Below are positions 2,838 through 36,411 of a stretch of DNA of 64,000 nucleotides, in pieces (the first letter of the stretch is position 1; the number at the start of each line of letters is the position of its first letter). Source of the DNA: a plasmid; sequence record NZ_CP118944.1. One strand, written 5' to 3'. The translations under genes and the position numbers were made by a program. Under the pieces are notes generated by a model. That model did no database searches and was not told the DNA's origin. It worked only from the letters and a program-made list of their open reading frames with translations.

Positions 2838-2851
2838 GCAGGGAGCGCATT

Positions 2852-6330: not shown

Positions 6331-6945
6331 ATGCTGATCGGATATGCCCGCGTCTCCAAAGCCGATGGCTCGCAGTCTCTCGACCTGCAGCACGACGCCT
6401 TGCGCGCCGCAGGTGTCGAACGGGACAATATCTATGATGATCTTGCTTCCGGCGGTCGTGATGATCGCCCTGGCTTGACTGCCTGCCTCAAGTCATTGCG
6501 TGACGGCGATGTGCTGGTGGTCTGGAAGCTCGATCGCCTCGGACGATCGCTTGCCCATCTGGTCAACACGGTGAAGGAGCTGTCAGACCGCAAGATCGGC
6601 CTGCGGGTTCTGACTGGAAAGGGCGCTCAGATCGACACCACGACTGCGTCCGGTCGCATGGTGTTCGGAATCTTCGCCACCTTGGCCGAGTTCGAGCGGG
6701 ATCTGATCCGAGAGCGCACCATGGCGGGTCTCGCCTCCGCGAGAGCGCGCGGTCGCAAGGGCGGACGAAAATTCGCGCTCACCAAAGCTCAGGTGCGTCT
6801 CGCGCAAGCCGCCATGGCCCAGCGCGATACTTCAGTTTCCGATCTCTGCAAGGAACTCGGCATCGAGCGCGTCACTCTCTACCGATATGTCGGTCCCAAA
6901 GGCGAGCTCAGAGACCATGGAAAGCATGTTCTCGGACTTACGTAG
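6331..6945 (+). CDS. tnpR: serine resolvase TnpR (Tn5393)
   Basis: 204 aa. N-terminus MLIGYARVSKADGSQSLDLQ with catalytic Ser in the YARVS motif. C-terminal HTH present. Confidence 0.9.
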   Translation: MLIGYARVSKADGSQSLDLQHDALRAAGVERDNIYDDLASGGRDDRPGLTACLKSLRDGDVLVVWKLDRLGRSLAHLVNTVKELSDRKIGLRVLTGKGAQIDTTTASGRMVFGIFATLAEFERDLIRERTMAGLASARARGRKGGRKFALTKAQVRLAQAAMAQRDTSVSDLCKELGIERVTLYRYVGPKGELRDHGKHVLGLT

Positions 6946-7010
6946 CAACTCGTTTCTTTTCGCAGGTTGAGCCACCTCCGCGCTTCATCAGAAAACTGAA
7001 GGAACCTCCA

Positions 7011-7814: not shown

Positions 7815-8650
7815 TGTTCATGCCGCCTGTTTTTCCTGCTCATTGGCACGTTTCGCAACCTGTTCTCATTGCGGACACCTTTTCCAGCCTCGTTTGGAAA
7901 GTTTCATTGCCAGACGGGACTCCTGCAATCGTCAAGGGATTGAAACCTATAGAAGACATTGCTGATGAACTGCGCGGGGCCGACTATCTGGTATGGCGCA
8001 ATGGGAGGGGAGCAGTCCGGTTGCTCGGTCGTGAGAACAATCTGATGTTGCTCGAATATGCCGGGGAGCGAATGCTCTCTCACATCGTTGCCGAGCACGG
8101 CGACTACCAGGCGACCGAAATTGCAGCGGAACTAATGGCGAAGCTGTATGCCGCATCTGAGGAACCCCTGCCTTCTGCCCTTCTCCCGATCCGGGATCGC
8201 TTTGCAGCTTTGTTTCAGCGGGCGCGCGATGATCAAAACGCAGGTTGTCAAACTGACTACGTCCACGCGGCGATTATAGCCGATCAAATGATGAGCAATG
8301 CCTCGGAACTGCGTGGGCTACATGGCGATCTGCATCATGAAAACATCATGTTCTCCAGTCGCGGCTGGCTGGTGATAGATCCCGTCGGTCTGGTCGGTGA
8401 AGTGGGCTTTGGCGCCGCCAATATGTTCTACGATCCGGCTGACAGAGACGACCTTTGTCTCGATCCTAGACGCATTGCACAGATGGCGGACGCATTCTCT
8501 CGTGCGCTGGACGTCGATCCGCGTCGCCTGCTCGACCAGGCGTACGCTTATGGGTGCCTTTCCGCAGCTTGGAACGCGGATGGAGAAGAGGAGCAACGCG
8601 ATCTAGCTATCGCGGCCGCGATCAAGCAGGTGCGACAGACGTCATACTAG
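7814..8650 (+). CDS. strB: aminoglycoside 6-phosphotransferase APH(6)-Id (StrB)
   Basis: 278 aa MFMPPVFPAHWHVSQPVLIADTFSSLVWKV... recognised as StrB. The ORF-track start at 7805 is an upstream TTG; the ATG at 7814 is used here. Confidence 0.9.
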   Translation: MFMPPVFPAHWHVSQPVLIADTFSSLVWKVSLPDGTPAIVKGLKPIEDIADELRGADYLVWRNGRGAVRLLGRENNLMLLEYAGERMLSHIVAEHGDYQATEIAAELMAKLYAASEEPLPSALLPIRDRFAALFQRARDDQNAGCQTDYVHAAIIADQMMSNASELRGLHGDLHHENIMFSSRGWLVIDPVGLVGEVGFGAANMFYDPADRDDLCLDPRRIAQMADAFSRALDVDPRRLLDQAYAYGCLSAAWNADGEEEQRDLAIAAAIKQVRQTSY

Positions 8651-8675
8651 ATATCAAGCGACTTCTCCTATCCCC

Positions 8676-8756
8676 TGGGAACACATCAATCTTACCGGAG
8701 AATATCGTTGGCCAAAGCCTTAGCGTAGGATTTCGCCCTCTCCCGCAAACGACCCC
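8676..8756. repeat. Tn5393 right terminal inverted repeat (~81 bp)
   Basis: Reverse complement of the left inverted repeat (tgggaacacatcaatcttaccggagaatatcgttggccaaagccttagcgtaggatttcgccctctcccgcaaacgacccc). Confidence 0.7.
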
Positions 8757-8759
8757 ATC

Positions 8760-9281
8760 ATGCGCCCCCTCGATACCGTCCTAAAGTTTGGGGACGACGC
8801 GGCTTACAAGAGATTCCAGGCGGCAGCCAGCGCCAGGCTCCAGGAGGAAGCTATCCCCCTATACAAGGGATATGCGAAAGACAGCAGCCAGATAAAGCCG
8901 ACCATCAGCTCTTTCTCCGTCGTATCCAAGAGCGACGCGCCAATGGTGGGCTATGTGGCCAATGCGATCATGACGCGCACGGTTAAACCCGAACTGCAGC
9001 TGCTCGCCGGCCACCTTATGCAGATTATCGCGCAGGAGAGCGGGGCGCCGCTCACCCCCCTGTCTGAACCGGTTCCCGGGGCGCTGGCCTTCTTGTTCGA
9101 CCAGTATCTTGGCCTGTGGCATGGAAGCGGTGACCTCAAACTCTCCAAGGAGCAAAGCGAGATGCTGATGACGGAGTATGTTCACTGCTCAGATAACTGG
9201 GCGCCGCTCGGCCCCCTCTACGTGAACGCCCCCGCCCCAGGCCGGGTTCGTCGCATCTACCAGCAATCTCCGGGGAAGTGA
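8760..9281 (+). CDS. hypothetical protein (173 aa); ORF begins 4 bp after the Tn5393 right inverted repeat, possibly a truncated or fusion reading frame
   Basis: ATG at 8760 immediately abuts the inverted-repeat end (8756). No recognised domain. Confidence 0.3.
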   Translation: MRPLDTVLKFGDDAAYKRFQAAASARLQEEAIPLYKGYAKDSSQIKPTISSFSVVSKSDAPMVGYVANAIMTRTVKPELQLLAGHLMQIIAQESGAPLTPLSEPVPGALAFLFDQYLGLWHGSGDLKLSKEQSEMLMTEYVHCSDNWAPLGPLYVNAPAPGRVRRIYQQSPGK

Positions 9282-9285
9282 CACG

Positions 9286-9570
9286 ATGAAGCGAATAGCG
9301 ATTGCCCTATCCCTTTCCATCACGCTGGTTGCTTGTGGTGACGCCAAGGAGGAGAAGCAGCACCGCAAACCACCAGAGGAGCAGGTGATCAGTGAGCCAG
9401 CCCATGGGATTGGAGCCATTTTTGGGAAGCCAAACCCCGATTACACACCACCAGGGAGGATAGTTGATAGCCCGGACTTTAAAGTGACTCTCCCAGAGGA
9501 CCGCTGGGAAGAGACCACTATCAGCAAGAAAGAGGGCAAGCCAAGCGCGGCGGTAGGTGTAGATAAGTGA
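9286..9570 (+). CDS. putative lipoprotein (94 aa)
   Basis: N-terminus MKRIAIALSLSITLVACGD has a lipobox-like LVAC. GGGAAG lies upstream. Confidence 0.45.
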   Translation: MKRIAIALSLSITLVACGDAKEEKQHRKPPEEQVISEPAHGIGAIFGKPNPDYTPPGRIVDSPDFKVTLPEDRWEETTISKKEGKPSAAVGVDK

Positions 9571-10062
9571 GAGCTCGCGGGGCTGCCGCAACATGCCCAG
9601 GATAAGGGGTCGTAAAGCACGTTAAGAGATTCGATACCCAGCAACGGCGCGGCTTTGCGCAAGCAGCTCCCCCTTAGACACAGCATTTTCGAGGTTCTCG
9701 AAACTCGGCTGTTTCAGCCGTGCAATACGAGAGTGGTTTTCGAGAAAGCAACATGCCATACCAGCACTGGCGCGGATCTGATTATCATTGAAGCCTCTCA
9801 AAAACGGTCGTTTATGAGACTTTTTACCATGCCAATGGCTTACCGTACTTTAAATTCAGAATTCTGATGCGACCCCCTTAGTTAGTACAAAACCGTTCTA
9901 ATGGACTTCATACCCCCTGATCACCCCCGTCACCGCCTGATCCCTTAGTTCGGCTGCAGGGTGAACATGGCCAGGGGCAGTGGCACTCCGCCCCTCGGTC
10001 GAATTGATGGACTCTATCGAGATCAACTTAATAAGATGCTAAGATGGTAAGATGGTATGTTG

Positions 10063-12124: not shown

Positions 12125-12489
12125 TCATCGTCGTGCCACTGAATACACATGACCTTATTTACTGTACGCGCTCGGGTCAATGCTGCCCATTCATCCCTAT
12201 ACCGTGTTACATTTGCGCTATTTTATCCCCGCCGAATGTCCCCAGTGAGACTAAGCAGAACTTATGAAAAAACTTTCGATTGATTCACCAGAATTGGCTT
12301 CGACTTCTTTGATTGAGGAAAACATGGGGCAGTTAAAGCAGCTGTTCCCGGATGCGTTTAGTGAGGGAAAAATTGATTTTGATGTGTTAAAGCAATTGCT
12401 TGGTAGTGAAGTCGATGATAGAGAGGAGCGCTATGGCCTGAATTGGCACGGTAAGCGGCAAGCTCGGCAAATTGCATTAACACCATCTA

Positions 12490-13647
12490 AATAGCTGTTC
12501 CGAATAGTAGATCACCGGAGGAAGGGAACTCAGTCCAGTTTGTGCGATCTGATTAGTCGCTAAACAAAACAAGCCACACCCAAAGGACTGAGTTGATGCC
12601 TATCCTACCACCTCTGCCACGACCACAACGGCGCCGCATTCACAAAATCATCCATGCCACCCGTGATAAAGGACATGCTCGTCGCTTGATGGCCATCTTG
12701 CTGTTACATGAAGGACGCACGATCACCGATGTTCATCACCTTACCGGCGCTGCGCGCTCGACCATCGGTCGTTGGCTTCGGTGGTATCGAGATGAAGGCA
12801 TAGATGCGCTAGAAGCCTTACCGGCTGGCCGTGCCCCAGTCTTACCTATCGCCAAGATTGTCACCCTACTGGTGCTGCTCATGCAGTTTTCTCCGCAAGA
12901 TTTTGGTTATCAGCGCAGCCGTTGGTGTACTGAACTATTGGCTATAAAAATCAATCGGTTAACAGGGCTCAATGTGGCAGCCTCCACGCTCCGCCGATGG
13001 TTACCTCGTATGGGCATTGTCTGGCGCAGGCCCGTGCCGACCTTGCGGATAAAAGACCCAGCCTATCAGGAAAAAATGGCGAATATCGACGCCGCGCTGG
13101 CCCGCTGTGATGCCGATAATCCGGTGTTTTATGAGGATGAAGTCGATATAGACCTCAATCCCAAATTAGGAGCCGACTGGATGTTCAGAGCGCAGCAAAA
13201 GCGGGTTGTCACACCGGGGCAGAATGCCAAGCATTATCTGGCAGGCGTTCTCCACGCAGGCAACGGAAGGGTACTTTACGTCAGCGGGATCAAGAAAAAC
13301 TCATCGCTGTTTATTGCCATGCTGGAAAAGCTGCGCCACCACTACCGACGAGCCAAAACCATCACGTTGATCCTCGATAACTACATCATTCACAAAAGCA
13401 AACAGACCGAGCGATGGTTGAAGAAGAATCCCAAGTTCTGCCTGGTGTTCCAGCCAGTTTACAGCCCTTGGGTTAATCACATAGAACGGCTATGGCACAA
13501 GTTACATGAAACCATCACGCGCAATCATCAATGCAGAGGGATGGCAAACCTGCTGGCCCGAGTGAAACACTTCATGGATACCGTGTCTCCTTTCCCGGGG
13601 AATGGCTATGGCACAGCGAAGGTGTAGCACTATTGGGATCAGTTATT
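12490..13647 (+). mobile_element. IS630-family insertion sequence, copy A (1158 bp), inside mod
   Basis: Terminal inverted repeats AATAGCTGTTCCGAATAGTAG / rc AATAACTGATCCCAATAGTGC. Flanked by TA (12488-12489 and 13648-13649), the hallmark IS630 TA target duplication. Matches the second copy at 35201-36358. Confidence 0.8.
12593..13627 (+). CDS. IS630-family transposase (344 aa)
   Basis: Identical in translation to ORF 35304..36338. N-terminal HTH region (GARSTIGRWLRWYRDEG). DDE-type C-terminus typical of the IS630/Tc1 family. Confidence 0.85.
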   Translation: MMPILPPLPRPQRRRIHKIIHATRDKGHARRLMAILLLHEGRTITDVHHLTGAARSTIGRWLRWYRDEGIDALEALPAGRAPVLPIAKIVTLLVLLMQFSPQDFGYQRSRWCTELLAIKINRLTGLNVAASTLRRWLPRMGIVWRRPVPTLRIKDPAYQEKMANIDAALARCDADNPVFYEDEVDIDLNPKLGADWMFRAQQKRVVTPGQNAKHYLAGVLHAGNGRVLYVSGIKKNSSLFIAMLEKLRHHYRRAKTITLILDNYIIHKSKQTERWLKKNPKFCLVFQPVYSPWVNHIERLWHKLHETITRNHQCRGMANLLARVKHFMDTVSPFPGNGYGTAKV

Positions 13648-15427
13648 TAGAGGTACGCTACGCCCATGTCAAGAAGATAGTGTGAATTGGGATAGCACAC
13701 AGAACCTGATGATTGAAGGTGATAATTTAGAGGTGCTAAAGCTGTTGCAAAAGAGCTACAGCGGAAAAGTGAAGCTCATCTATATTGACCCACCGTACAA
13801 CACAGGTAAAGATTTTGTTTATCCTGATAATTTTCAGGATAATGTTCAGAACTATTTGGAATTGACAGGGCAAACTGATGGCAATGTTAAGTTAAGTACA
13901 AATACTGAAACCAGTGGGCGTTATCATACTGACTGGTTGAACATGATGTACCCGCGTTTAAAGTTGGCGCGTAATTTACTTTGTGATGATGGGGTCGTTT
14001 TTATTTCAATTGATGATTCTGAAATAGAAAACCTTAAAGTAATATGCAATGATATATTCGGTGAAGATAATTTCATTTCAACAATATCACGGGTTATGAA
14101 AACTGGTGGGGCCAAGGGGAATTTCTTTACTCCTAATGTTGAGTTTATTTTGGTTTATGCAAAAAAAATAATAAATGCAACTCATTTTAGAGCCCGGATA
14201 GGGGGGGAGCAAATAGCCACATATTATAATAAGGTACAAGTCGGTGGAGAACGTGACGGCGAAGTCTATGGTGAGGAACGGTTATATAAAGCAAGCTTGG
14301 ATGCAAGAGCAAATCAGCGCTATTGGGTTAAATGTCCTGATGGTTCTTTTGTTATTCCTCCGGGATCAACATTTCCTGAAAAAACTCAAGATGGAATACA
14401 AGTCACTCCGGAGCGTGGTGATGGTGTTTGGAAATGGACTTACGCTAGATATAAAGAGGAATTCTCTCAAGGTAATATAGTTTTTAAAGAAACAAGTACC
14501 TCTGCTCTTTTGGATGAAAATGGAGTGAAATCAAAATACAACATATACAATAAACTTTGGTTGAAAGAACAGCAAGAAAAAGGTATGGTCCCAGGCAATC
14601 TAATTAGTAAGTGGGAAAATCGACAGAGTTCCGCAGAACTAAAGGATTTGGGGATACCGTTTGACTTTGCAAAACCTACCAATCTTATTAAGTATATTAT
14701 TGAAATTGCCAGGGTTAATGAAAGTGATATTGTTATGGATTTTTTCGCTGGTTCTGGCTCTGTAGGTCATGCAGTATACAAATACAATATTGAAAACTGT
14801 TCAAATTTACGTTGTATCCTTGTGCAATTGCCTGAACTTCTCTCTAGGGAGAATAAAGAGCAAAAGCAAGCTTATGATTTTTGTGTTAAGTATAAAAAAT
14901 CATTTTCTATTGCTGAGCTTACCAAAGAACGCCTCCGACGCGCCGGAGCTAAAGTCAGCGCTGACAATCCTGACTGGCAAGGTGATACCGGATTCCGCGT
15001 ATTTAAGCTCGATACCTCAAATATTCGCCCATGGTCGGCAGATGCCGCGTCGTTGGATGCACAGATGCAGGCCAGCTTGTCACCGCTGCTCGAAGATCGC
15101 TCACAGGATGATGTCATGACAGAATTGCTGCTCAAGCGCGGCATTGATTTGAGTGTCCGTCTTGAAGTGCGTGACTTTGATGGTTTACGCGTGACCTGCG
15201 CTGGTAATGGGATGTTGTTTACCTGTCTTGAATCACATATTCCTGCTTCTTCCATTGAAGCTCTGGCATCAGGGTTAACTACCTGGCATCGCGAGCTAGG
15301 GGGGAGTGCTGATGCGGTGTGTTATTTCATTGATGAAGCATTTGAAAATAATGTTGCCAAGTCCAACCTCTGTGCCACGTTGGTGCAGCAGGGCCTCAAC
15401 CAATTGCACAGTCTGTAAGGGGGCAAG

Positions 15428-18400
15428 ATGAAACTCCATTTTGAACCCGATCTTGATTATCAACTGGATGCTATTACTGCCGTGTGCGACCTGTTTGCTG
15501 GCATGGAACGTTGGCAAAATGAGATGACCGTACTGGCTCCAGTGCAAGGGGCATTGGCGCTAGAGGGGGCTACAGGGGCATCCCCGGTTAACCCAGAAAT
15601 ACATGATGAGGCGTGGTTACTGGCCAATACCCAACAGGTGCAGTTGCGAAATAAACTGCCCCCGGCGGATGAGCTTGTCAGTCGGGATTTCACCGTTGAG
15701 ATGGAAACTGGGACGGGGAAAACCTATGTATATCTGCGCTCCCTGTTTGAGTTGAATCAGCGGTTCGGGATGAGCAAGTTCATTATCGTGGTGCCCTCTG
15801 TCGCCATTAAAGAGGGGGTATATAAAACCCTGCAAATAACACGGCAGCATTTTCAAAGCCTATATGCTGGCATTCCTTACGACTATTATCTTTACGACTC
15901 AACAAGGCCTGGAGATGTACGCAATTTTGCCACCAGTTCTGTGATGCAAATTATGGTAATGACGGTAGGGGCAATAAACAAAAAAGATGTTAACAAGCTC
16001 TACCAGTCGAGTGAAAAAACGACTGTTGATGAGTTGGATAAACCAATTGACCTGATCCGTGCCACTCGTCCAGTAGTGATTGTCGATGAGCCGCAAAGTG
16101 TTGATGGTGGTCTGAACGGTGCAGGTAAAACCGCGCTGGAGTCAATGAATTCACTGATTACTCTGCGTTATTCGGCGACCCATACCGATAAGCACCACAT
16201 GTTGTATCGCCTGGATGCAGTTGACGCTTATGAGCGTAAACTGGTCAAGCAAATTGAAGTTGCGGGAATGCAGGTCGAGAACGCCCATAACTTGGCCTAT
16301 GTGAAGCTCATTTCTATGGAGAACAAACGCGGCACCATCAGGGCCACCCTTTTACTTGATGTTGAACGTCCACAAGGTGGCGTTCAACGTGAAGAGGTTA
16401 TTGTTACCGATGGTAGTCGCCTTGATGACGATACTGGTCGTGCAGTTTATGCCGATTATCGGATTGGTGAGATACGGCTGGGTAAGGGCGGATTTGTGAC
16501 TCTCATTACACCGCAGGGCGAGCAGTTTTTGCAGCCAGGCGACACGGTTGGCGATGTGGAGCCCCTGACACTGCAACGGCATTTGATCCGACGAACTATT
16601 CGCGAGCATTTGGATAAAGAGTTGCGCTTGAACTCGCAAGGTATCAAGGTACTCTCGTTATTCTTCATCGACCGAGTAGACCTTTATCGCCAAGTAAATG
16701 AAGATGGCCGTCGTGAGCCTGGCGCATATGCTCGTGTATTTGAAGACGAGTACCAAGCATTATTGCGTCAACCGCTGTATGCCGCATTGCGTGAGAGCCA
16801 CCCTGTACAGGCTAGTGAAGTACATGATGGTTATTTTTCTATCGATAAAAAAGGGGGATGGGAAGATACTTCTGAAAGTAATGCCAGCGGGCGTGATAAC
16901 GCGGAGCGTGGTTATAACCTCATAATGAAGAACAAAGAGCGACTATTGAGCTTTTCAAACCCAGTACGCTTTTTGTTTTCGCATTCCGCCCTTAAAGAAG
17001 GGTGGGATAACCCCAATGTGTTCCAGATTTGCAGCTTGCGTGAGATGGGTAGTGAACGAGAGCGGCGGCAGACCTTGGGAAGGGGCTTACGCCTGTGTGT
17101 TAATCAGGATGGTGAGCGGATCCGGGATGACAGTATCAATATATTGACAGTGGTTGCTAGCGAGGGATATGAAACCTACGCGGAGCAATTGCAGCAAGAA
17201 ATTGAACAGGAAACCGGGATCAAATTTGGCATTGTTACATCCACTGCATTTGCTCACTTACATATGACGATGGTGAATGGTGCCCATGAAGCGCTTGGGG
17301 CCGCAGGCTCTAATGCCCTCTGGGAAACGCTACAAGCGGATGATTATCTTAGCCGTACGGGTAAGGTAAATGATGCTCTTAAGGTTGCTCTACGTGATGC
17401 TCAGCTCACCTTGGCTCCTGAATATGAACCACTGCGCTCTGAAATTGAACAGATCTTGAGGAAAAGCGCTGGGCGTTTGCGGATCAGTAATGCCGATGAG
17501 CGTGTCGTTATCTCTCCACGACAGGCTGTGTTGACGTCGGAGGCATTCAAACAGTTGTGGTCTCGCATTTCTCAAAAAACACAGTATCGACTGGACTTTG
17601 ATGAAGAGATGCTGATCGCAGATTGCACTGCTTCATTACGTGCAATGCCGCTTATCACTCGTGCTCAAATACAGTTCAGTAAAGGGGCATTGTCTTATAC
17701 CCGTGCAGGATTGGATATGCGATCAATGCCAGGAGCAACCAGTAGTCAAGTTGATGATATTGCACCGGTACTTCCAGATATTCTTGGGGTGCTTCAGGAT
17801 AAAACAGGGCTTACTCGACGAAGCCTATATCAGATATTGACTGACAGTGGCCGGTTGCGCGATTTTGTAAAAAACCCGCAACAATTTTTGACGGAGGCGA
17901 TTGGTCGCCTCAATGGTTGTAAGCAACGAGCCGTTGTTGATGGGATCAAATACTACCGATTGCCGGGGGCGGTGTACGCACAGACACTCTTCACCGATAA
18001 AGAACTGACTGGGTATACCAAAAACTTATTCAATGCCGCAGCAGGAAAATCAGTGTACGAGCAAGTACCACTGGATTCACAAGGAATTGAGCGAGAGTTT
18101 GTTCAACATCTTGAGCAGCAAGATGAAGTGAAGCTTTACGCAAAGTTGCCTGGCTGGTTCAAAATCCCGACCCCGTTGGGGAGTTACAATCCTGACTGGG
18201 CGCTGGTTATTGAGCGGGATGGGGTTGAGCAGGTGTATTTTGTGGTAGAAACCAAAGGCACCCGTAACTTGGATGAGTTGCGTTTAACCGAGAAGGCTAA
18301 GATTACCTGCGGTGAGGCTCATTTTGCAGCTCTCAAAGCTGGGTATTCAGATCCTGCGCATTACTTGGAAGCAATGAGTGTAGCGCAGGTGATGGCTAGC

Positions 18401-18433
18401 GTAGATGATCTGATGACGGGGGGGGCTGGTTAG
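15428..18433 (+). CDS. res: type III restriction enzyme Res subunit (SF2 helicase-nuclease)
   Basis: 1001 aa. Helicase motif I METGTGKTY and motif II VIVDEPQS. Starts 10 bp after the mod stop. Size fits type III Res. Confidence 0.8.
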   Translation: MKLHFEPDLDYQLDAITAVCDLFAGMERWQNEMTVLAPVQGALALEGATGASPVNPEIHDEAWLLANTQQVQLRNKLPPADELVSRDFTVEMETGTGKTYVYLRSLFELNQRFGMSKFIIVVPSVAIKEGVYKTLQITRQHFQSLYAGIPYDYYLYDSTRPGDVRNFATSSVMQIMVMTVGAINKKDVNKLYQSSEKTTVDELDKPIDLIRATRPVVIVDEPQSVDGGLNGAGKTALESMNSLITLRYSATHTDKHHMLYRLDAVDAYERKLVKQIEVAGMQVENAHNLAYVKLISMENKRGTIRATLLLDVERPQGGVQREEVIVTDGSRLDDDTGRAVYADYRIGEIRLGKGGFVTLITPQGEQFLQPGDTVGDVEPLTLQRHLIRRTIREHLDKELRLNSQGIKVLSLFFIDRVDLYRQVNEDGRREPGAYARVFEDEYQALLRQPLYAALRESHPVQASEVHDGYFSIDKKGGWEDTSESNASGRDNAERGYNLIMKNKERLLSFSNPVRFLFSHSALKEGWDNPNVFQICSLREMGSERERRQTLGRGLRLCVNQDGERIRDDSINILTVVASEGYETYAEQLQQEIEQETGIKFGIVTSTAFAHLHMTMVNGAHEALGAAGSNALWETLQADDYLSRTGKVNDALKVALRDAQLTLAPEYEPLRSEIEQILRKSAGRLRISNADERVVISPRQAVLTSEAFKQLWSRISQKTQYRLDFDEEMLIADCTASLRAMPLITRAQIQFSKGALSYTRAGLDMRSMPGATSSQVDDIAPVLPDILGVLQDKTGLTRRSLYQILTDSGRLRDFVKNPQQFLTEAIGRLNGCKQRAVVDGIKYYRLPGAVYAQTLFTDKELTGYTKNLFNAAAGKSVYEQVPLDSQGIEREFVQHLEQQDEVKLYAKLPGWFKIPTPLGSYNPDWALVIERDGVEQVYFVVETKGTRNLDELRLTEKAKITCGEAHFAALKAGYSDPAHYLEAMSVAQVMASVDDLMTGGAG

Positions 18434-19127: not shown

Positions 19128-19190
19128 CGTCCCAATACTGCCGCGACACCGAACAAGCTCACATCAATGCGTTGTTGCAGGAAGCTATTG

Positions 19191-19228
19191 GGGGTTGAAG
19201 TCCAATGGAACGAAAACGTACTAAGGTA
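19191..19228. repeat. Tn3-family 38-bp terminal inverted repeat (outer GGGG at 19191)
   Basis: ggggttgaagtccaatggaacgaaaacgtactaaggta. The core TGGAACGAAAAC is shared with Tn3/Tn1 inverted repeats. Confidence 0.55.
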
Positions 19229-19261
19229 AGTAAGTAATTCCATTGTATACTTTCAAAGCAC

Positions 19262-21190
19262 TTACTCTATTTCACTAATGAAACGGGATTTCTGCTGAAA
19301 CCTAAGATCACCCCAAGGCATCATTCTCTGCTTAGGATAAGACACGTACAACCAACGCTTCGCTCTCGTCACCGCGACAAAAGCGTTATTCCGTTCCTCG
19401 TCAAGCTCTTTGACCGTCCTAGCCCTGTAATCAGGAAAAACCCCTTCGCACATCCCTATCAAAAATACAATATCCTTTTCTAAACCTTTCATCGTATGCA
19501 CAGTACTTAGGGTTAGGCCTTCATCTATACTACTTTCAGAAAGTTGGCCTAATGCCAATGCATTTCTAAATGCAACCAATGAATCACCTAAGCCTTTACG
19601 CTTGAATCGGGTCCACGTACTACTAAACTCTTTAAGCTCTTCAATACTCAGTTTAACGTCTTCTATTTTATCATCCGAAACACCGTTATGGTTTTCAACC
19701 AACGATGTAAGAAGTTCATTAAAATCCTTTACTAGTTTGGGGATTTTAGGGTTTTCAATATCTAAGTTGTCAATAGCAACAAGAAGTTTTTCGAATATCG
19801 TAGAGTACTCATCTAATGCTGATGAAATTTGAGATGCCATTTCCCGCAATACATTCGTTGTCCAGTTGGCTGGCTCAGAGATACTCAGTACTTGGCATAA
19901 CTTTTTCCCATCTACCCAATCTTTAGAATTCAACTTCACCCTAATGGCATAGTCTAAGACCTTTCCGAATCTAGTTGACGGCTCAAGCTGCCTTTCTCCT
20001 TTTCTCAAAGAGTAAGGTATCGAATTATCTTCAAGGCATTTTTCAAGCTTGCCAAAAACAAATCGATTGCGGCCAATCACTACCATATTACCTAATGATA
20101 TTTTTCCTTCAATATCATCGTGAATTTTTAATGCCAAAAGATTCTTTATCGTGGCAACAACCGCAGTAGCTTCATCCTCTTCAGAATTATATTCTGAAAT
20201 GCTAACTCCACCCTCTAAGGCATAATCAATCTCTGCTTGTGAGCCTGGCCGCAACTTGTTTGCCGCACGAATAACCGACTTAGTACTGCGATAGTTTTCC
20301 TTCAGCTCAAACTTTTGAGGCATAAAATCGTTAATGAAACTTGAGCAGAAGTAGTCTTTTGATGACCCATTAAACCCATAAATCATTTGATTAGGGTCTC
20401 CTACCATCAGAATGCTTTTTATCACATCACCGCAAAGCACCTTGATAAACTCATACTGTGCTTTATTAAGATCTTGGGCTTCATCAACACAAACATGTTT
20501 ATACTGTGAGCGGTATATTTTTGCGATCCAGTCGTACGTGAGCAGTATTCGATGGGCGTACACTAAAATATCGTCATAATCGATACCCCCACTATTTAGT
20601 AGTGCAGCTTGATAGTCCTGATATATTTTCCAAATATTATTATTTTGATATAGCTCAATGACTTCCAACTCTGTAAGCAGCTCCCTTTTTATTTTCGAAA
20701 ATATATCCATATAGGATTGAAGATTTCTTTCCCTGTTTTTTAGTTCCTTTGAATCGGTAATTGCTAGATATTCATCTATATTAGTGCCATCTTCACGTAA
20801 AGATTGTATAAAGACTTCCATTCGGTCTTTATCTCTATCATATATATGCAACTCCGATGGCAAACCAACGGTATGGCCATATTTCTCCAAAACACGCTGT
20901 GCGACCGAATGAATTGTGGCGATCCAAGTTCTGTTTTCTACTTGTTCGAAGTCGATTAAACGCTCACTCATTTCTTCTGCAGCTTTATTCGTGAAGGTGA
21001 GTGCGATAACACCGTCTTTTTTTGTTTTCTCCAAAATATATCGAACACGCTCTGTTAACACTCGCGTTTTACCAGAACCTGCTGATGCAAGTACTTGAAT
21101 GGCTGTATCCATAGGAGCCTCAACGATCTGGCGCTGAGCATTTGATAGATTCATATCAGACTCCTGACTCAATTTGTTTGAATAGTTCAA
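19262..21190 (-). CDS. gajB: Gabija GajB-like UvrD/Rep-family helicase
   Basis: 642 aa. Walker A ASAGSGKT and motif II CVDEAQDL. Immediately downstream of and overlapping the OLD-family ATPase gene. Low GC. Confidence 0.7.
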   Translation of the reverse strand: MNYSNKLSQESDMNLSNAQRQIVEAPMDTAIQVLASAGSGKTRVLTERVRYILEKTKKDGVIALTFTNKAAEEMSERLIDFEQVENRTWIATIHSVAQRVLEKYGHTVGLPSELHIYDRDKDRMEVFIQSLREDGTNIDEYLAITDSKELKNRERNLQSYMDIFSKIKRELLTELEVIELYQNNNIWKIYQDYQAALLNSGGIDYDDILVYAHRILLTYDWIAKIYRSQYKHVCVDEAQDLNKAQYEFIKVLCGDVIKSILMVGDPNQMIYGFNGSSKDYFCSSFINDFMPQKFELKENYRSTKSVIRAANKLRPGSQAEIDYALEGGVSISEYNSEEDEATAVVATIKNLLALKIHDDIEGKISLGNMVVIGRNRFVFGKLEKCLEDNSIPYSLRKGERQLEPSTRFGKVLDYAIRVKLNSKDWVDGKKLCQVLSISEPANWTTNVLREMASQISSALDEYSTIFEKLLVAIDNLDIENPKIPKLVKDFNELLTSLVENHNGVSDDKIEDVKLSIEELKEFSSTWTRFKRKGLGDSLVAFRNALALGQLSESSIDEGLTLSTVHTMKGLEKDIVFLIGMCEGVFPDYRARTVKELDEERNNAFVAVTRAKRWLYVSYPKQRMMPWGDLRFQQKSRFISEIE

Positions 21191-22979
21191 TTATCTTTTT
21201 AGGAAAGTTTTCTTTAGGCAGCTTAATCAGATTGTCAGTAATTGCTTTTGCATAAAGTGGCTTACTTGAATCTAGAATGTCGAGGATAGCTCTAACTCGC
21301 CCTTCATGACCAGTGTAATCTCTATTTACATCTTCAAAAATAGGTTGTTTGCAAGTGTCACAACTTGGATTATTTGTTTTAATTCGTTTTAAAAATGTAC
21401 CTTCTCTTTTTTCAATCCACTTATCTAGTGCATCATCACCAGCTATTTCCTGAATAGTTTTTTCTATGATATCTTTATAGCCTTGACCTAATAAGTAGCC
21501 CTCAAAATCAGTATCTTCAAGTATGGTGATATTTCGAGCATTCTCGATATCAGTAGGCCCAAACACTTTTTCATAATTCTTCTTGAGATCTTTAACAGTT
21601 TGTTTTTCACCATCACTAAAGATGAAGACTGGTATATTGAGATCTCTTGCCAGAATAAGAAACGGACGATACTTAGCTCCTGAACCATTAACACCCACGA
21701 AATTTATACCGAGTGAAAAGGGATGCTTTCCCGTGTAGGATTCAAACAGTTCCGGCAAGGCTTGCTCTTCTGTTTCTCCTTCCGATAAGACTATTGCTTT
21801 TGAAAACAATATCTCACCACGAGAATGCACCACCTCTCTTTTCAATTTTCTTAGATCATCGTCTTCAAACTCACTTCTTAACTGATATATCTGAACTGAA
21901 TTATCGGACTTGCTTAGGGACTTTATTTCATGCAAATCTGCCAAGCCAGCAATATAAGGGGAGTGAGTACTAATAATCACTTGCCCTGGTACATCGATGA
22001 GTTGCCTATATAGTGTCCTCTGGGCATTCGGATGCAGGTGTGCTTCAGGTTCTTCGGCGGCCATAATTGGGAAAAATGGCTCAGCTTCCTTTTCGTGATT
22101 CTTGGCCAAGAGTTCGGTAAAAGCTTTTACGGTCAACATGGATGCCCAACTACGCGTACCCATACCATGATATTCCATCGAAAATGAGCTCTTATCTGAC
22201 TCACCGAAATTTACACTAAACCTCTTCGACAGGTCACGAATTTTCTTTGGAAACGGGGTAAGTTCAGTTTGGCCAGTTCCTTCAAATGATTGATTTAAAT
22301 GGTCTAGATGGGCCTTCAATCGCTTAAGTGGTTCGCTCTTCTCGATAGCTTCTTTATTGACTGCGGCCACCATTCGTTCCAGTTCCGCAACATCTTTATC
22401 GTCGTACTCAATACTTGATAGCACACGCCCCACGAATGAAGACTTCTCTTTCAATTCATTATGAATATCTCTTTGTGCATCAATTGGAATAAAAGGCACA
22501 GACTCAAATCGCTTACTCAATCTGTTCTTATTGTTAATCCGAACATCTTGCCATCCTACACGGTCTGGCCACGCATCCAAATGAAACCGATCAAGAGTGT
22601 AGCCGCCCTTCACTCGATCTGGTTTAGCGACAGTTCGTATAGCTACAAATTGACTTCCATCAGGCTCTGACTGAATTCTATCGCCAAATACCTGCTGCCA
22701 ACTCTCTGAAAACTCTTTCGCTCTAGTACCATCGCAGACAGCGATAAAACGAAGGTCGACTGTGATAACTTCTTGGCGCTTTTCATCTTCGCCTATATGA
22801 AAATCTTCATCAGATAAGTAACGCGAGTAGTCGCCCATGGCTAATTGCAACGCCTTTATTACTGACGTTTTTCCAGCATTATTTTGCCCTAATAAAACGG
22901 TTACTCTTTGCAGAGTTATCTCAATATTTGATATTCCTCTAAATCCGGATATACGAACTGTATCTATCTGAATACTCAT
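21156..22979 (-). CDS. gajA: Gabija GajA-like OLD-family ATPase-TOPRIM endonuclease
   Basis: Start taken at internal Met MSIQIDTVRISGFRG (avoids overlap with tnpR). Walker A GQNNAGKTS. ABC-type EEPEAHLHP and H-loop ISTHSPY. C-terminal TOPRIM-like VLSEGETEE ... FSDGE. Confidence 0.7.
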   Translation of the reverse strand: MSIQIDTVRISGFRGISNIEITLQRVTVLLGQNNAGKTSVIKALQLAMGDYSRYLSDEDFHIGEDEKRQEVITVDLRFIAVCDGTRAKEFSESWQQVFGDRIQSEPDGSQFVAIRTVAKPDRVKGGYTLDRFHLDAWPDRVGWQDVRINNKNRLSKRFESVPFIPIDAQRDIHNELKEKSSFVGRVLSSIEYDDKDVAELERMVAAVNKEAIEKSEPLKRLKAHLDHLNQSFEGTGQTELTPFPKKIRDLSKRFSVNFGESDKSSFSMEYHGMGTRSWASMLTVKAFTELLAKNHEKEAEPFFPIMAAEEPEAHLHPNAQRTLYRQLIDVPGQVIISTHSPYIAGLADLHEIKSLSKSDNSVQIYQLRSEFEDDDLRKLKREVVHSRGEILFSKAIVLSEGETEEQALPELFESYTGKHPFSLGINFVGVNGSGAKYRPFLILARDLNIPVFIFSDGEKQTVKDLKKNYEKVFGPTDIENARNITILEDTDFEGYLLGQGYKDIIEKTIQEIAGDDALDKWIEKREGTFLKRIKTNNPSCDTCKQPIFEDVNRDYTGHEGRVRAILDILDSSKPLYAKAITDNLIKLPKENFPKKIIELFKQIESGV

Positions 22980-22983
22980 TATC

Positions 22984-23679
<696 letters not shown>

Positions 23680-24130
23680 TTGGCAGCCTTGCTTGGGGGA
23701 TACATGCCCGTCGATTTTCTAACCTCGGAACAGAAAGCCTGCGATAGACAATTCTCTGCCGAACCGAATGAAGTGCAATTGGCCCGTTACTTTCATCTGG
23801 ATGAAGCCGACCAGGCTTTTATCAATCATCGGCACGGCAATCAGAACTGTTTTGGTGTTGCTTTGCAGTTAGGCTGCGTGCGATTTCTAGGGACCGTCAT
23901 ATCCAACCTGCAACATGTTCCGGTCATACAGTGCAGGCTTCCGAGCTGATCCGCTCGCTACTGAAAAGTGACCGGCCTTCCAGCCTGGCACAAGCCATCA
24001 TTGAAGTGGACCGTATCAATAAGACACTTTACTTGCTGAACTACGTAGATATATATAGGGCGTTACTACGACAAGCAAAGACGCTGGTCGGACTACGGCC
24101 CCGATAACGGGTTGCGGTTCGGGATACTGT
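23680..24130 (+). pseudogene. tnpA: Tn3-family transposase tnpA remnant (N-terminal ~85 aa fused/deleted to a short C-terminal-region fragment)
   Basis: MPVDFLTSEQKACDRQFSAEPNEVQLARYFHLDEADQAFINHRHGNQNCFGVALQLGCVRFLGT matches the Tn3 TnpA N-terminus. The frame then breaks. A downstream frame gives IRSLLKSDRPSSLAQAIIEVDRINKTLYLLNY, a Tn3 TnpA motif from about residue 880. Only ~450 bp remain of an expected ~3 kb. Confidence 0.7.
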
Positions 24131-24137
24131 AGCTGAG

Positions 24138-24175
24138 CGACAAGTCATCTACACTGAGCCCTGCGGTTTGTCCCC
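24138..24175. repeat. degenerate right inverted repeat of the Tn3-like element (ends ...GGTTTGTCCCC)
   Basis: It contains CACTGAGC and a terminal CCCC like Tn3 IRR, but matches the left inverted repeat poorly. Confidence 0.3.
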
Positions 24176-24246
24176 AGAACCGTCCGAGAACTGATTGAGG
24201 ACGATGATTGCCAACGCCGTGCGGGGCTTTTTCCTTGGTTATCGGC

Positions 24247-25173: not shown

Positions 25174-26139
25174 CTAAATAAGTTCGTGTTGCTCAATGTG
25201 ATCTAGAGCCTGGCGCGCAACAGCCTCGAACACGCGAAATGCCTCATCCCAAGTCAACGCATCCCCATACACCATCGGCTTCACGAACGCCTCATAACGA
25301 TCTTTGTATAGGGGGTCACCAGCAATCACATCCAGGCCAAACCGCATCACACCGATAGGATCTGCTGCAAACTCGGGGTGTTGGGGACCATAGCGATCAC
25401 GATCCATCTTCATCCCTTCAGCTATCAGCCCTGCCAGTTCGGCCAAATCAAAGGTGGTACTTTGTTGCAGGCGATAAGTGTCATAAATGTGGCGAACCAA
25501 CGACTCATCATCCAATCGTTCTGGGTCATGCTTGACGCTGGCTGTTCTGCGCAGCATCGACAACACTTTCTCGGCTTGGGTGGAGATCAGGGGAACCGTG
25601 TTGAAGGCTGGCACTTCAGGTCCTTGCTGCATCGCTTCATTGTGCAGCGAACAAATGGGCATGGGGTTATGGCCTGCGAGCAGATCAGTCTCAATGAGTT
25701 CGAGCTTGATGAAAGGCCGAAGGCAGGGGGCCTTGCTGAAGGCCTGTGGGTATCTCACCGGCATTTCAATGTACCTGTGCTCATCCCGACAAGTGACCTC
25801 AGCCTTCTCTACTTGGAAAACGCCAGTCGCATTGAGCTCTTCAATCAAACCATCTCTGATGGCTTTGCGATGGCGCTTCATCGCGCTTCGAGATTCATCT
25901 TTAGCACTATCGTTAACAGATAACTTGATGTCGACATCTTCAGACATGCGCTGAAGCTTGACGTCAGCTTTGGCTAATGCGGTCCCGCCTGCAAACACCA
26001 TGGTGTGGTGCTGGCAAGAATGACTTGCAAGCAGTTTGAGCAGCTGGACGACGTAGTAGTCCTTTTCTGCTATCGCAGGGTTATCGATCCCGAAATAGTC
26101 AGAAACGTCGGCGAAAATCGAAGCGTCTTTAGGCTGCAT
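25174..26139 (-). CDS. AbiEii/AbiGii-family nucleotidyltransferase toxin (type IV TA / abortive infection)
   Basis: 321 aa. Pol-beta NTase motif MVFAGGTALAKADVKLQRMSEDVDIKL (hG[GS]...DxD). Its size and pairing with the upstream small regulator fit AbiE. Confidence 0.65.
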   Translation of the reverse strand: MQPKDASIFADVSDYFGIDNPAIAEKDYYVVQLLKLLASHSCQHHTMVFAGGTALAKADVKLQRMSEDVDIKLSVNDSAKDESRSAMKRHRKAIRDGLIEELNATGVFQVEKAEVTCRDEHRYIEMPVRYPQAFSKAPCLRPFIKLELIETDLLAGHNPMPICSLHNEAMQQGPEVPAFNTVPLISTQAEKVLSMLRRTASVKHDPERLDDESLVRHIYDTYRLQQSTTFDLAELAGLIAEGMKMDRDRYGPQHPEFAADPIGVMRFGLDVIAGDPLYKDRYEAFVKPMVYGDALTWDEAFRVFEAVARQALDHIEQHELI

Positions 26140-26530
26140 TGAACACTCGGCTTCCTATTTTCAGCTTTCTGGAAAAACGCTTTTTAGGCTTAACTTCCAT
26201 AAAGGCGGGAATCTGAGTGGATTTCCCCGCGGCATAAGCTGCGGTCAGGCCCTTCAGTTCGTAAGGCACCTTCAGGCGGTCAAGCGTAGCAATGAGTACG
26301 GCGTCTGGACCACCAGGGGAGGCGATCATCAAGCGACTATTGATCCGGTTACGCCGTGCCTTTGCATACACGCCGTAGCCGACCTTCAGAAGCAGACCCT
26401 TTTCACACATTTGGCGTAAGGCTCTGCCTATTTGGTCATAACCGCCCAAGTCATCGAAATCCTCACGGAGAAACACATCTCGCTTAGATCGTTTGATTCG
26501 TGCTTCAACACGGTCTGCAATGGTCATCAT
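26129..26530 (-). CDS. AbiEi-like antitoxin/transcriptional regulator (short form)
   Basis: 133 aa MMTIADRVEARIKRSKRDVFLREDFDDLGGYDQIGRALRQMCEKGLL, like AbiEi-family N-terminal domains. Overlaps the NTase gene by 11 bp. Confidence 0.5.
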   Translation of the reverse strand: MMTIADRVEARIKRSKRDVFLREDFDDLGGYDQIGRALRQMCEKGLLLKVGYGVYAKARRNRINSRLMIASPGGPDAVLIATLDRLKVPYELKGLTAAYAAGKSTQIPAFMEVKPKKRFSRKLKIGSRVFNAA

Positions 26531-28318: not shown

Positions 28319-28519
28319 ATGGTGACATTCGACTATCGGAGCGGCATTTTGGAAGCTGCTGATACCAAGACTGGCTATGAATGGTGTTGGTTTAAAGGGG
28401 ACTCGGAGATAACGAGAAGTATTGAGGGGGAACTGGCCGGTTCGCTCAGTGTGCCCCCCGGTGCGTCGGTTGTGGCCGTTAAAACGATCATTCGTGGTGA
28501 CGCCAGGGTGAGAGCGTGA
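28319..28519 (+). CDS. small hypothetical protein (orig. ~64 aa); 3' end altered by the ISAs1-family insertion
   Basis: The ORF crosses the IS left junction at 28503. Without the IS the frame ends ...IIRGDAKR* just beyond the target duplication. Confidence 0.3.
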   Translation: MVTFDYRSGILEAADTKTGYEWCWFKGDSEITRSIEGELAGSLSVPPGASVVAVKTIIRGDARVRA

Positions 28520-29663
28520 ACATTTTGTTAAATTTCACCCAGTTTTTTGAGACCGCATTGAGTACCGTTTCCAGATATTCACTGCTCATTCCTGCGATTT
28601 TTTGCTTCCGTCTTACGCTCGCCTTGCGTGAAGTCTCGGCCCTGAGCATGTTCAGCCCCATGTGCCGGATGCACGCCAAAATCTCTGCGGCATCACCGCG
28701 ATAAATCGGGCAATCATCCTCGCCCATCGTGACGTCCAGCACCCAGTGCAGGCTATTTTCGATGGCCCAGTGCCCACGCACCGCTCGCGCAAACTCATCC
28801 TGCACCAACGCTTTGGAACTGATGAAATAACGCTGCTCTATGGTAATTTTTTGCATATTTTCAACGCGATAGGAGATGGCCACGCCAATGCTGTGCAACT
28901 GTTTCCAATGAGGAAACTGGGCGGCCAACTCGCCCGCCGCCATGACATGGTACTCACGACCATCGATGCGGCCATGAGCCTTCTCAAGCGTCATCGTCTC
29001 TGCGCATAACGGGGTGGCCGCCAGCGGGGCGAGGGCCTGTCGAACCGCCTCGAACAACTTGGGTTGGTTGCCTTTGACGGCCAATAAGTAATCGCCACCT
29101 TGCTGAAGGATGGTCTCGGCGATCTCGGTCTGGCACCCCATCGCATCGATGGATACCAGGCAGCCTTTGATGTCGAGCAGCGCCAGCAACTCGGGAATAG
29201 CGGTAATTTCATTGGACTTGGCGTCGGTTTTTATCTGTCCGAGCACCAGCTTATTGGCGGCGGCATAGGCACTGACCATGTGAATGGTCGACGTTCGATC
29301 CTCACGGTCATAGGAACTGCGCAGGGTTTTGCCATCGATAGCGACCAGGGCGCCATCGGTGTGCTGGTTAATGGCTTGAGTCCACCGCACAAAGGCGGCC
29401 TGAAACGGCTCTGGTTTGATGCCGGAGATGATCCTGGCAATGGTGTCATGGACAGGAATGCCGTTTTTAAACAGTCCCTTGGATTGAAACCAGGGAAGAT
29501 GAACCTCGCCGAAATCCTCAATATCTTCCCAGCCCTCAGCCCCGCCGATCACGGCACAGACGGTGAGAAACAGGACATCGTAGAAGGGATAATAAATCTT
29601 GGCATGCTGGCGAGGGTCGTGAATATTGTCGAAGAACTGAGCGAAAACGGCATCAATAGACAT
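28488..29663 (-). CDS. ISAs1-family (H-repeat-associated type) transposase
   Basis: Start at MSIDAVFAQFFDNIHDPRQ... The ORF reads through the left IS end into flanking DNA (last 5 codons RHHE* lie outside the IS). Family assignment is by recognition of the N-terminal and DDE regions. Confidence 0.75.
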   Translation of the reverse strand: MSIDAVFAQFFDNIHDPRQHAKIYYPFYDVLFLTVCAVIGGAEGWEDIEDFGEVHLPWFQSKGLFKNGIPVHDTIARIISGIKPEPFQAAFVRWTQAINQHTDGALVAIDGKTLRSSYDREDRTSTIHMVSAYAAANKLVLGQIKTDAKSNEITAIPELLALLDIKGCLVSIDAMGCQTEIAETILQQGGDYLLAVKGNQPKLFEAVRQALAPLAATPLCAETMTLEKAHGRIDGREYHVMAAGELAAQFPHWKQLHSIGVAISYRVENMQKITIEQRYFISSKALVQDEFARAVRGHWAIENSLHWVLDVTMGEDDCPIYRGDAAEILACIRHMGLNMLRAETSRKASVRRKQKIAGMSSEYLETVLNAVSKNWVKFNKMFTLSPWRHHE

Positions 29664-29944
29664 GAGAGCACTCCTGAAAAGGAGCATGAGATCACAGCCG
29701 GATCACCAGGTCAAATTTCAGGGTGAGGATGTGAGCAAATTGTTAACTATGGAAATCATGGAAATTATCATTTTTTGGATTTCATGCGCATTTTTTGAGC
29801 TGAAATGACGTGCAGTGACGATTAAAAAGTGTGAAGGCGATCCTGACTATAAAGTTAACTGCATATCACAGGCCTATAAGTATTTGTTTTGTAGGCAAAA
29901 AACTATTTTTAATTTTTAACAAAATGTTCACGATCTCGCCCTGG
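28503..29944 (-). mobile_element. ISAs1-family insertion sequence (1442 bp) with 8-bp target-site duplication TGGTGACG
   Basis: Terminal inverted repeats CCAGGGTGAGAGCGTGAACATTTTGTTAA (left) and rc CCAGGGCGAGATCGTGAACATTTTGTTAA (right). Direct repeats TGGTGACG at 28495-28502 and 29945-29952. Confidence 0.7.
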
Positions 29945-34755: not shown

Positions 34756-35200
34756 TCCCCTTATCAATCAAATGCCGTTTTTGATGGTTCAATTTTACAA
34801 AATGACTTGGGCATGACCGCGAGCGGTCGCGCTGTCATGCTTCGCATCGAGTCAGCGAAAAGATGCTGTCTCGCCCCTTCGGGTTTCCATCGCTCATGCC
34901 TACGCCTCTGCGAGGCTGCGCGCTCCGCTTGCCGCACCCATGGCCAGCTTCATCGCTCTGCCTTGCCCCTCTAAGCCCTTCACCGCCAGGCAAATTAACA
35001 CGCCGGTCGCCGCTGCCAGTGTTCGCTTCGCCATCTCCTCACCCGTTCGCACTCTCTTCGTTCGCTTGCGCTGCGGCTTGCGGGGATGCACAGGCATCGT
35101 CTCCCTTGTCGCGTGTTGTTTCCCTTTCTTGCGGCGAAGAACTCAGAGAGGCAAATCAAATCAAGCAACGCAGTAAAGAGCCACGGGCGCTGAAAACCTA

Positions 35201-36358: not shown

Positions 36359-36411
36359 TAGAGCGCAGCTCAGAATCTAGAAAGGCAAATGGCAAAAACA
36401 AGGGGCAAATA

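Follow-up and report, generated by a model that had tools for sequence, protein, structure and literature searches.

The window analysed here is a stretch of 64,000 bp of the plasmid record NZ_CP118944.1, which was identified as part of an F-type conjugative Aeromonas plasmid (MOBF TraI/TraD). Between positions 19191 and 24052 it contains an element in which the two genes of the Gabija anti-phage system, gajB and gajA, stand next to a resolvase gene (tnpR), a res region and what is left of a Tn3-family transposase gene (tnpA). The features of this element are given below, with the evidence for each in brackets (IR, inverted repeat; aa, amino acids; nt, nucleotides).

19191..19228, + strand: cargo-side terminal IR, GGGG outermost (junction with the empty-site plasmid, alignment to the IRs of relatives)
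19262..21154, - strand: gajB, UvrD-like SF1 helicase, 630 aa, intact (PADLOC, Pfam)
21156..22979, - strand: gajA, OLD-family ATPase with TOPRIM nuclease, 607 aa, intact (PADLOC, Pfam)
22984..23538, - strand: tnpR, serine resolvase, 184 aa, intact (Pfam Resolvase and HTH_7)
23545..23660, unstranded: res region with TGTCY/RGACA subsites (sequence reading; subsites assigned by analogy)
23704..23925, + strand: tnpA 5' remnant, residues 1-74 of a TnpA of ~1002 aa (DUF4158, 6.8e-16; blastx)
23928..24050, + strand: internal piece of tnpA from the DDE domain, residues 836-876 (DDE_Tnp_Tn3 positions 251-290/389; blastx)
24052..24053, unstranded: truncated right junction, from transposon DNA to backbone (window 24053 pairs with position 3914 of the empty-site plasmid)

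Both Gabija genes are full length, and their identification from the sequence alone was confirmed by PADLOC. GajA matched PDLC00067 (6.5e-259, profile positions 1-598/604) and contained the Pfam domains AAA_15, DUF2813 and OLD-like_TOPRIM, and the Walker A motif GQNNAGKT as well as the EEPE and EGETEE motifs could be recognised by eye in its translation. GajB matched PDLC00132 (5.2e-288, profile positions 2-624/625) and contained the domains UvrD-helicase and UvrD_C. By sequence, this is a Gabija system, with an OLD ATPase carrying a C-terminal TOPRIM domain and with GajB immediately downstream. The stop codon of gajA (21156) overlaps the start of gajB (21154), so that the two genes form one operon. 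They are AT-rich relative to the plasmid, as had been noticed before, with a GC content of 36-44% compared to 48-56% in the flanking backbone.

The Gabija system of Bacillus cereus VD045, for which structures have been solved, likewise encodes an OLD-family ATPase/TOPRIM nuclease and, downstream in the same operon, a UvrD-like helicase. However, the sequence similarity of the window GajA to the GajA chains of known structure is remote (E ~5e-9, residues 280-471), and both proteins fall instead in the gammaproteobacterial subfamily represented by the two PADLOC profiles. In other Gabija systems, the GajA/GajB pair was shown in published work to cut phage DNA and deplete nucleotides, and a review describes GajA as a nucleotide-sensing nickase and GajB as sensing DNA ends and hydrolysing nucleotides.

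The product of tnpR, which had been called a Tn3-TnpR-like resolvase, gave full-length matches to the crystallised Tn3 resolvase (2.7e-82) and to the gamma-delta resolvase (3.8e-82), with an identity to the former of ~80%, as counted by eye in the printed alignment. Its stop codon is followed by the 4 nt GATA and then by the ATG of gajA. On the other side, the intergenic region between tnpR and tnpA is 165 bp long. The TGTCT/AGACA subsites expected there were present at 23545-23660, and this region was divided as follows.

23633-23660, unstranded: res site I, palindromic, TGTCCACAATGTTATAAATTAATAGACA, 28 bp, kept in the Xenorhabdus and Photorhabdus copies described below
23575-23610, unstranded: candidate res site II, TGTCT/AGACA-type, 22-bp spacer from site I
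~23545-23571, unstranded: candidate res site III, TGTCT/AGACA-type
23610..23638, - strand: sigma-70-like promoter candidate, TGGACA-17 nt-TAAACT (consensus match, overlapping res site I)

The order of site I, 22 bp, site II and then site III nearest to tnpR agrees with the layout of Tn3/gamma-delta res. A literature search for the published sequence of gamma-delta res site I gave no result. A resolvase with an adjacent res, as used by the Tn3 family for cointegrate resolution, is therefore present, with subsites assigned by analogy.

The candidate promoter is directed into tnpR-gajA-gajB, and it was the sole minus-strand promoter-like site upstream of tnpR. A sigma-70 consensus scan found no promoter-like site on the minus strand between the start of tnpR and gajA. 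As gajA starts 4 nt past the tnpR stop and no promoter-like site lies between, gajAB are probably expressed from a resolvase-controlled promoter in res, as a tnpR-gajA-gajB transcript that would be autoregulated by the resolvase. In Tn3, res holds the promoters of both tnpR and tnpA, and TnpR represses both (PMC7157771).

Extent and ends of the element

The element spans 4,862 bp (19191-24052) and has no counterpart in related Aeromonas plasmids. In the backbone plasmids of A. salmonicida, A. veronii and A. hydrophila (several), both flanks were matched with 96-99% identity and the insert was absent. The junctions were mapped by aligning the window to one of these empty sites, the A. salmonicida plasmid NZ_CP124843 (L001 in the coordinates below). 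The left junction falls at 19190|19191 and coincides with the outer GGGG of the IR, with an ambiguity of 1 nt (the outer end is possibly 19190). The IR, which reads GGGGTTGAAGTCCAATGGAACGAAAACGTACTAAGG from 19191, had been proposed as a Tn3-like repeat, and this was supported in three ways: its position at the insertion junction, its ungapped, column-for-column alignment with the IRs of intact relatives (30-31/38 positions matching), and a 25-nt core that occurred once in the window in a 3-mismatch pattern search, where 0 occurrences were expected by chance.

The right end is different. The sequence-only reading had let the element run to 24175 and end in a degenerate right IR. However, transposon DNA stops at 24052, and from 24053 on the window is backbone with 99.4% identity to the insertion-free A. 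salmonicida plasmid. The backbone lost at this junction amounts to 85 bp (L001 3829-3913). What is missing beyond 24052 therefore includes the tnpA-side IR, the last ~126 codons of tnpA, the duplicated copy of the target and 85 bp of the target itself. The stretch 24120-24180 was rejected as a right IR, as its DNA is backbone and did not align with any IR of the family. Inverted-repeat searches, Hamming scans and the 3-mismatch pattern search did not detect a second IR of the element in the window. Another Tn3-type IR at 9878-9916 was rejected as a partner end, since it is part of a separate Tn5393-like element and is in the wrong orientation.

The transposase gene survives only as remnants of ~350 bp in total, rather than the ~450 bp first estimated. 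Residues 1-74 are 73-86% identical to Tn3-family TnpA proteins (86% to a Shewanella TnpA) and residues 836-876 are 93-95% identical to relatives in blastx, showing that both fragments are genuine. The full-length or near-full-length TnpA proteins of relatives reach the NCBIfam cut-off for 'Tn3 family transposase'. The two remnants are joined by an internal deletion of ~2.3 kb (TnpA residues 75-835), and the DDE fragment ends at 24050, i.e. at the right junction. The gene in the window is thus not intact and no active enzyme can be encoded. There was no microhomology of note at either of the two deletion junctions, the internal one in tnpA or the one at the right end.

IRs of ~38 bp at both ends, as expected of the Tn3 family, are not found in the window, which has one, but both are present in the related copy from Photorhabdus africana. 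As the window element has neither an intact transposase nor a second IR, both of which define such transposons, it is best filed as a decayed derivative of a Tn3-subgroup unit transposon. An element with one IR left could move by rare one-ended events at most. Mobilisation in trans by the TnpA of the Tn5393-like element on the same plasmid was considered and is unlikely, as the IRs match at 26/38 positions and the TnpA proteins are only ~26-35% identical.

Copies in other genera and the origin of the unit

The same element was found in two other genera. In P. africana, the block is 90.5% identical at the nucleotide level over window positions 23894-19186, both IRs are present, and the order is IR-tnpA*-res-tnpR-gajA-gajB-IR. 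Only residues ~67-245 of TnpA are missing. The whole copy measures 6,990 bp (JAXBVE010000010.1, L098 4803-11792). This copy is bracketed by a 5-bp direct repeat, ATTAC, and a 5-bp flanking duplication is a hallmark of Tn3-family insertion. In Xenorhabdus japonica DSM 16522, the block is 90.7% identical (window 23921..19190, L018 9059..13789), and the similarity is lost precisely where the IR has its outer end. The tnpA-side IR is gone in this copy as well, and its TnpA keeps residues 1-137 and 925-1001. The tnpA lesion is therefore different in each of the three copies, whereas tnpR, gajA and gajB are full length in all of them. The spacing of 4 nt between tnpR and gajA is the same in all three, and identity in a sliding window was even along the block, giving no sign of mosaicism or cargo swap among the copies.

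As relatives carry the same unit, and the P. africana copy has both IRs and the ATTAC duplication, Gabija can be regarded as true cargo. The boundaries, the gene identities and the past mobility of the unit are established, and we put the probability that Gabija was the cargo of a Tn3-family unit transposon, which inserted into the Aeromonas plasmid and was later disabled by deletions, at roughly 0.9. The earlier proposal of spread by a transposon followed by immobilisation through transposase decay is supported in both parts, with the addition that the lost end contributes to the immobility as well.

The unit most probably arrived as a Tn3/gamma-delta-subgroup transposon of ~7.5 kb, with an IR, tnpA reading leftward, res, tnpR-gajA-gajB reading rightward and the other IR. 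It would have inserted by replicative transposition into the F-type conjugative plasmid, between the hok-adjacent region and the AbiE locus. Two illegitimate deletions most probably followed, in an order that can only be suggested: one would have removed TnpA residues 75-835, and the other TnpA from residue 877 to the end together with the IR on that side, one copy of the duplicated target and 85 bp of backbone. The element has thereby lost the ability to transpose and spreads only along with the plasmid. The resolvase with res and the complete Gabija system look functional and could still be active, with gajAB presumably transcribed from the tnpR promoter within res and held down by resolvase autoregulation.

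A single IR, with the other end at an arbitrary point within tnpA, could also be produced by one-ended transposition, which is known for Tn3-family elements. According to this explanation, transposition proceeded from the cargo-side IR to a random point in tnpA, and there was never a two-ended insertion. However, the target shows a loss of 85 bp and no clean 5-bp duplication, a separate internal tnpA deletion (aa 75-835) would still be required, and the donor segment is usually longer in one-ended products. In P. africana, moreover, the sister copy is a normal two-ended insertion with a target duplication, and we consider the one-ended origin very unlikely.

Another possibility is that Gabija and the Tn3-family remnant are chance neighbours, with the Gabija genes pre-existing or independently acquired beside an unrelated remnant. 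The presence of close GajA relatives (84-87% identical) in many transposon-free contexts would fit this. It is already contradicted by the absence of 19191-24052 as one block from the empty-site plasmids, by the recurrence of the IR-gajB-gajA-tnpR-res-tnpA block at ~90% identity in two more genera, by the position of this block inside a 5-bp duplication in P. africana and by the conserved tnpR-gajA spacing, and it retains almost no credibility.

Several observations nevertheless weigh against the origin by insertion and decay of a unit transposon. The inner part of the window IR has a 2-nt deletion relative to the IRs of relatives. The right flank of the window element, where a 5-bp duplication would lie, is deleted together with 85 bp of the target. 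The promoter in res is a consensus match only, and consensus matches are less frequent in the region than in shuffled sequence. A fully intact representative of the lineage, with full tnpA, both IRs and gajAB, was not found: the search for intact relatives, with a genome scan of 80 loci, gave P. africana, with both IRs, gajAB and the duplication, and none with a full tnpA; exact-protein look-ups returned only the same decayed Aeromonas insertion; the tnpR-gajA junction pattern had no match in the metagenome collection; and PLSDB gave no plasmid with the Gabija element. Finally, the GajA relatives that are 84-87% identical occupy non-transposon contexts, whereas the cargo of the transposon-like locus L151 described below is 69% identical. 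As these closer relatives lie off transposons, there may have been repeated capture of the cargo or an exchange of cargo alleles.

Among the public assemblies, mostly wastewater metagenomes, all exact-sequence copies of GajA and TnpR were the same decayed insertion with the same junctions. The decayed insertion is therefore now fixed in a plasmid lineage. Gabija has been reported to be enriched on wastewater plasmids (PMC12853721).

In most respects the element is built like Tn3/Tn1000 (gamma-delta). The IRs of ~38 bp end in GGGG and contain the ACGAAAAC box, tnpA and tnpR diverge from an intervening res, the resolvase matches over its full length, res site I has 28 bp centred on TTATAA, and the P. 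africana copy has a 5-bp target duplication. The element differs in carrying Gabija instead of bla, in the start of the cargo 4 nt past the tnpR stop, which amounts to an operon fusion, and in the reduction of tnpA to two scraps with one IR deleted. The placement of Gabija in the passenger slot, where bla would be, had been recognised from the sequence, but a tight operon with tnpR is not simply bla-like. Closest in sequence are two transposons, one with mer genes on Shewanella decolorationis pNi1-3 (NZ_CP076856) and one with toxin-antitoxin genes on A. sobria pASCH21 (NZ_KT315928). Their TnpA proteins are 73-95% identical to the window remnants, the DNA from tnpR through res to the tnpA 5' end is 73-78% identical, their IRs hardly differ from that of the window element, and they too carry their cargo between the IR and the 3' end of tnpR. 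In these transposons, however, the cargo is mercury resistance or a RelE/ParE toxin-antitoxin pair, and tnpA and both IRs are intact.

Other Tn3-family elements with Gabija were found by scanning for TnpA around 168 loci. Of these, 80 were Gabija loci of species-representative genomes and another 80 came from metagenomes, each set being capped at that number, and protein look-ups supplied the remaining 8. TnpA adjoined gajA in six of the 168. The metagenome contig L151, which is more distantly related to the window element, contains the tnpA 5' part (65% aa identity), res, tnpR (77%), gajA (69%) and gajB (71%), followed by a Tn3-type IR, and its tnpR stop overlaps the gajA start. In Photorhabdus antumapuensis (NZ_JAHZMK010000054.1, 1-7640), the contig is exactly one serine-resolvase-type Tn3-family transposon with IRs of 36 nt (2-37 and 7605-7640, 97% complementary). 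TnpA (1013 aa) and TnpR are intact, and the cargo is pseudogenised, with an in-frame stop in gajA ahead of the EEPE motif and a frameshift near codon 502 of gajB; contigs from draft genomes and metagenome-assembled genomes (MAGs) may contain errors, which bears on these pseudogenes. The decay in this element is the reverse of that in the window.

A Limnobacter MAG (L058/L186) carries intact gajAB with the IR type of P. antumapuensis and a truncated tnpA, with an IS3-family element directly past the truncation. A Pseudomonadales MAG carries an element with IRs of 61 nt, an intact TnpA of 999 aa and intact gajAB, in which a tyrosine recombinase and a KfrA_N-like partner resemble the TnpS/TnpT system. 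Homologs of gajAB between Tn3-type IRs, which had been named as a check, therefore exist in other elements (P. africana, P. antumapuensis and the Limnobacter and Pseudomonadales MAGs), and Gabija is carried by at least three Tn3-family lineages.

Loss of tnpA and the resolvase-Gabija operon

In the three copies of the window lineage, the decay of tnpA happened independently in three hosts. Every lesion (3/3) leaves the first 66-137 codons of tnpA, which adjoin res. Pairwise ratios of nonsynonymous to synonymous substitution (dN/dS) across the three copies were 0.08-0.37 for tnpR, gajA and gajB, indicating purifying selection, with 0.10-0.12 for gajA, 0.11 for gajB in the comparison with P. africana and 0.17-0.37 for tnpR.

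This could be because tnpR and res were kept as a regulator of Gabija, as a multimer-resolution system of the plasmid, or as both, with the loss of tnpA being selected rather than neutral. Three independent tnpA lesions with tnpR, res site I and gajAB intact would agree with such a domestication, as would the dN/dS of tnpR, the promoter candidate that lies in res only and the HTH_73 gene that takes the place of tnpR upstream of gajA in non-transposon relatives. TnpR and res may also act as a resolver of plasmid multimers, and a plasmid-stabilising role for a Tn3-family TnpR is discussed in PMC7157771. However, tnpA decay is common among Tn3-family copies generally, most of the divergence behind the dN/dS values may predate the loss of tnpA, and the argument is drawn from three copies and from sequence. 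Domestication of this kind is a tentative explanation that we consider less likely than not.

The HTH_73 gene is a small gene of ~79 aa that is often found just upstream of gajA in non-transposon relatives (L002 11828-12067, L104 823-1062 and L105 620-859). It is annotated as PF24718 HTH_73 in L104 and L105 and is unannotated in L002, and it may be a native regulator. It is absent from the transposon-borne copies of Gabija, in which tnpR abuts gajA instead.

Across the six informative elements, tnpA is dead and gajAB intact in four (the window, X. japonica, P. africana and Limnobacter), tnpA is live and gajAB dead in one (P. antumapuensis), and both are intact in the TnpS/TnpT-type element of the Pseudomonadales MAG (1/6). 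Gabija being in conflict with replicative transposition could account for this pattern, as could selection for the retention of res and tnpR as the control region of Gabija, and it may be meaningless given the few cases and the common decay of tnpA. In the strongest version of the conflict, Gabija and an active Tn3-family transposase would be incompatible on one element, and either tnpA or gajAB would be lost, with the resolvase co-opted to regulate the immune operon. Transposition produces nicks, free 3'-OH ends and cointegrates that could trigger GajA/GajB, or Gabija could attack the intermediates. We regard such a general incompatibility as doubtful and offer it as speculation.

In the literature searched, Tn3-family cargo consisted of antibiotic resistance, metal resistance, virulence, catabolic and toxin-antitoxin genes, with Gabija not among them, and no report of Gabija or any multi-gene anti-phage system as Tn3-family cargo was found there. 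In the survey of 190 transposons by Lima-Mendez et al. 2020 (PMC7157771), the passengers are resistance, virulence, catabolic and toxin-antitoxin genes, and the word 'phage' has 0 occurrences. The elements in that survey with toxin-antitoxin genes in the transposition module resemble the window element in that a stress or defence module lies against the resolution genes and could plausibly be expressed from res promoters under resolvase control. The toxin-antitoxin pairs adjoin res site I or precede the resolvase gene, whereas the 3.7-kb Gabija operon is immediately downstream of tnpR. Tn7-like elements (Benler et al. 2021, PMC8649781) are likewise DDE transposon vehicles for anti-phage systems including Gabija, but they move by cut-and-paste with target selectors and carry large, variable cargo, in contrast to the replicative transposition and cointegrate resolution of Tn3.

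The pairing of Gabija with Tn3 adds to the known kinds of element, which is useful and will not surprise specialists. Tn3-family unit transposons act as carriers of a complete anti-phage system across genera (Aeromonas, Photorhabdus, Xenorhabdus and others), and the vehicles belong to the same family that spreads bla, mer and strAB. With the fused tnpR-gajA-gajB operon, the idea that an immune system is controlled by the resolvase of a transposon can be put to the test. The repeated loss of tnpA with tnpR-gajAB kept illustrates how mobile defence cargo becomes fixed in a plasmid defence island.

The plasmid surroundings of the element

The Gabija element is located within a small defence island of the plasmid, with a Type III restriction-modification system on one side and AbiE on the other. 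A separate, apparently complete Tn5393-like Tn3-family transposon is present at 3320-9916. The other features of the window are listed here.

3320-6205, - strand: Tn5393-like tnpA, 961 aa
6331-6945: Tn5393-like tnpR
7011-7814: strA-like APH
7805-8650: strB-like APH(6)
9878-9916, - strand: Tn5393-like terminal IR, GGGGTATGAAGTCCATTAGAACGG... (26/38 match to the IR of the Gabija element)
13682-15418: Type III mod
15428-18433: Type III res (PADLOC REase_III, E = 0)
25174-26139: AbiEii (PADLOC 2.8e-113)
26129-26530: AbiEi (PADLOC 1.9e-48)
28488-29687, - strand: DDE_Tnp_1 (IS4/IS5-type) transposase, 399 aa

An IS630-family element of 1,166 bp, encoding a DDE_3 transposase of 344 aa, occurs in two 100% identical direct copies at 12487-13652 and 35198-36363, and the ~21.5 kb that they bracket include the Gabija element, AbiE, RadC and the genes for Type III restriction-modification. 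In the metagenome contigs L005 and L006, which represent the same plasmid, the IS630-family copy at 12490-13644 is missing, and the mod open reading frames are 644 and 664 aa, compared to 578 aa in the window. Therefore, the insertion of the IS630-family element appears to have truncated the Type III methylase gene at its 5' end.

Close to the left end of the Gabija element, at 19088/19089, collinearity with the A. salmonicida plasmid is interrupted, as the window is without a 336-bp segment (L001 3390-3725) in which that plasmid encodes a toxin of the Hok/Gef family. Breaks at 19088/19089 also occur in several metagenome contigs, and an ISAs29 insertion is found nearby in other Aeromonas plasmids. 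The DDE_Tnp_1 transposase gene lies in an insertion of ~1.4 kb (28506-29943), which is not in the metagenome contigs L005 and L007 with the same backbone. At 1159-2499, a Mob_Pre (plasmid recombination/mobilisation) gene adjoins the Tn5393-like element, which suggests that a small mobilisable plasmid, or a piece of one, was incorporated into the conjugative plasmid.

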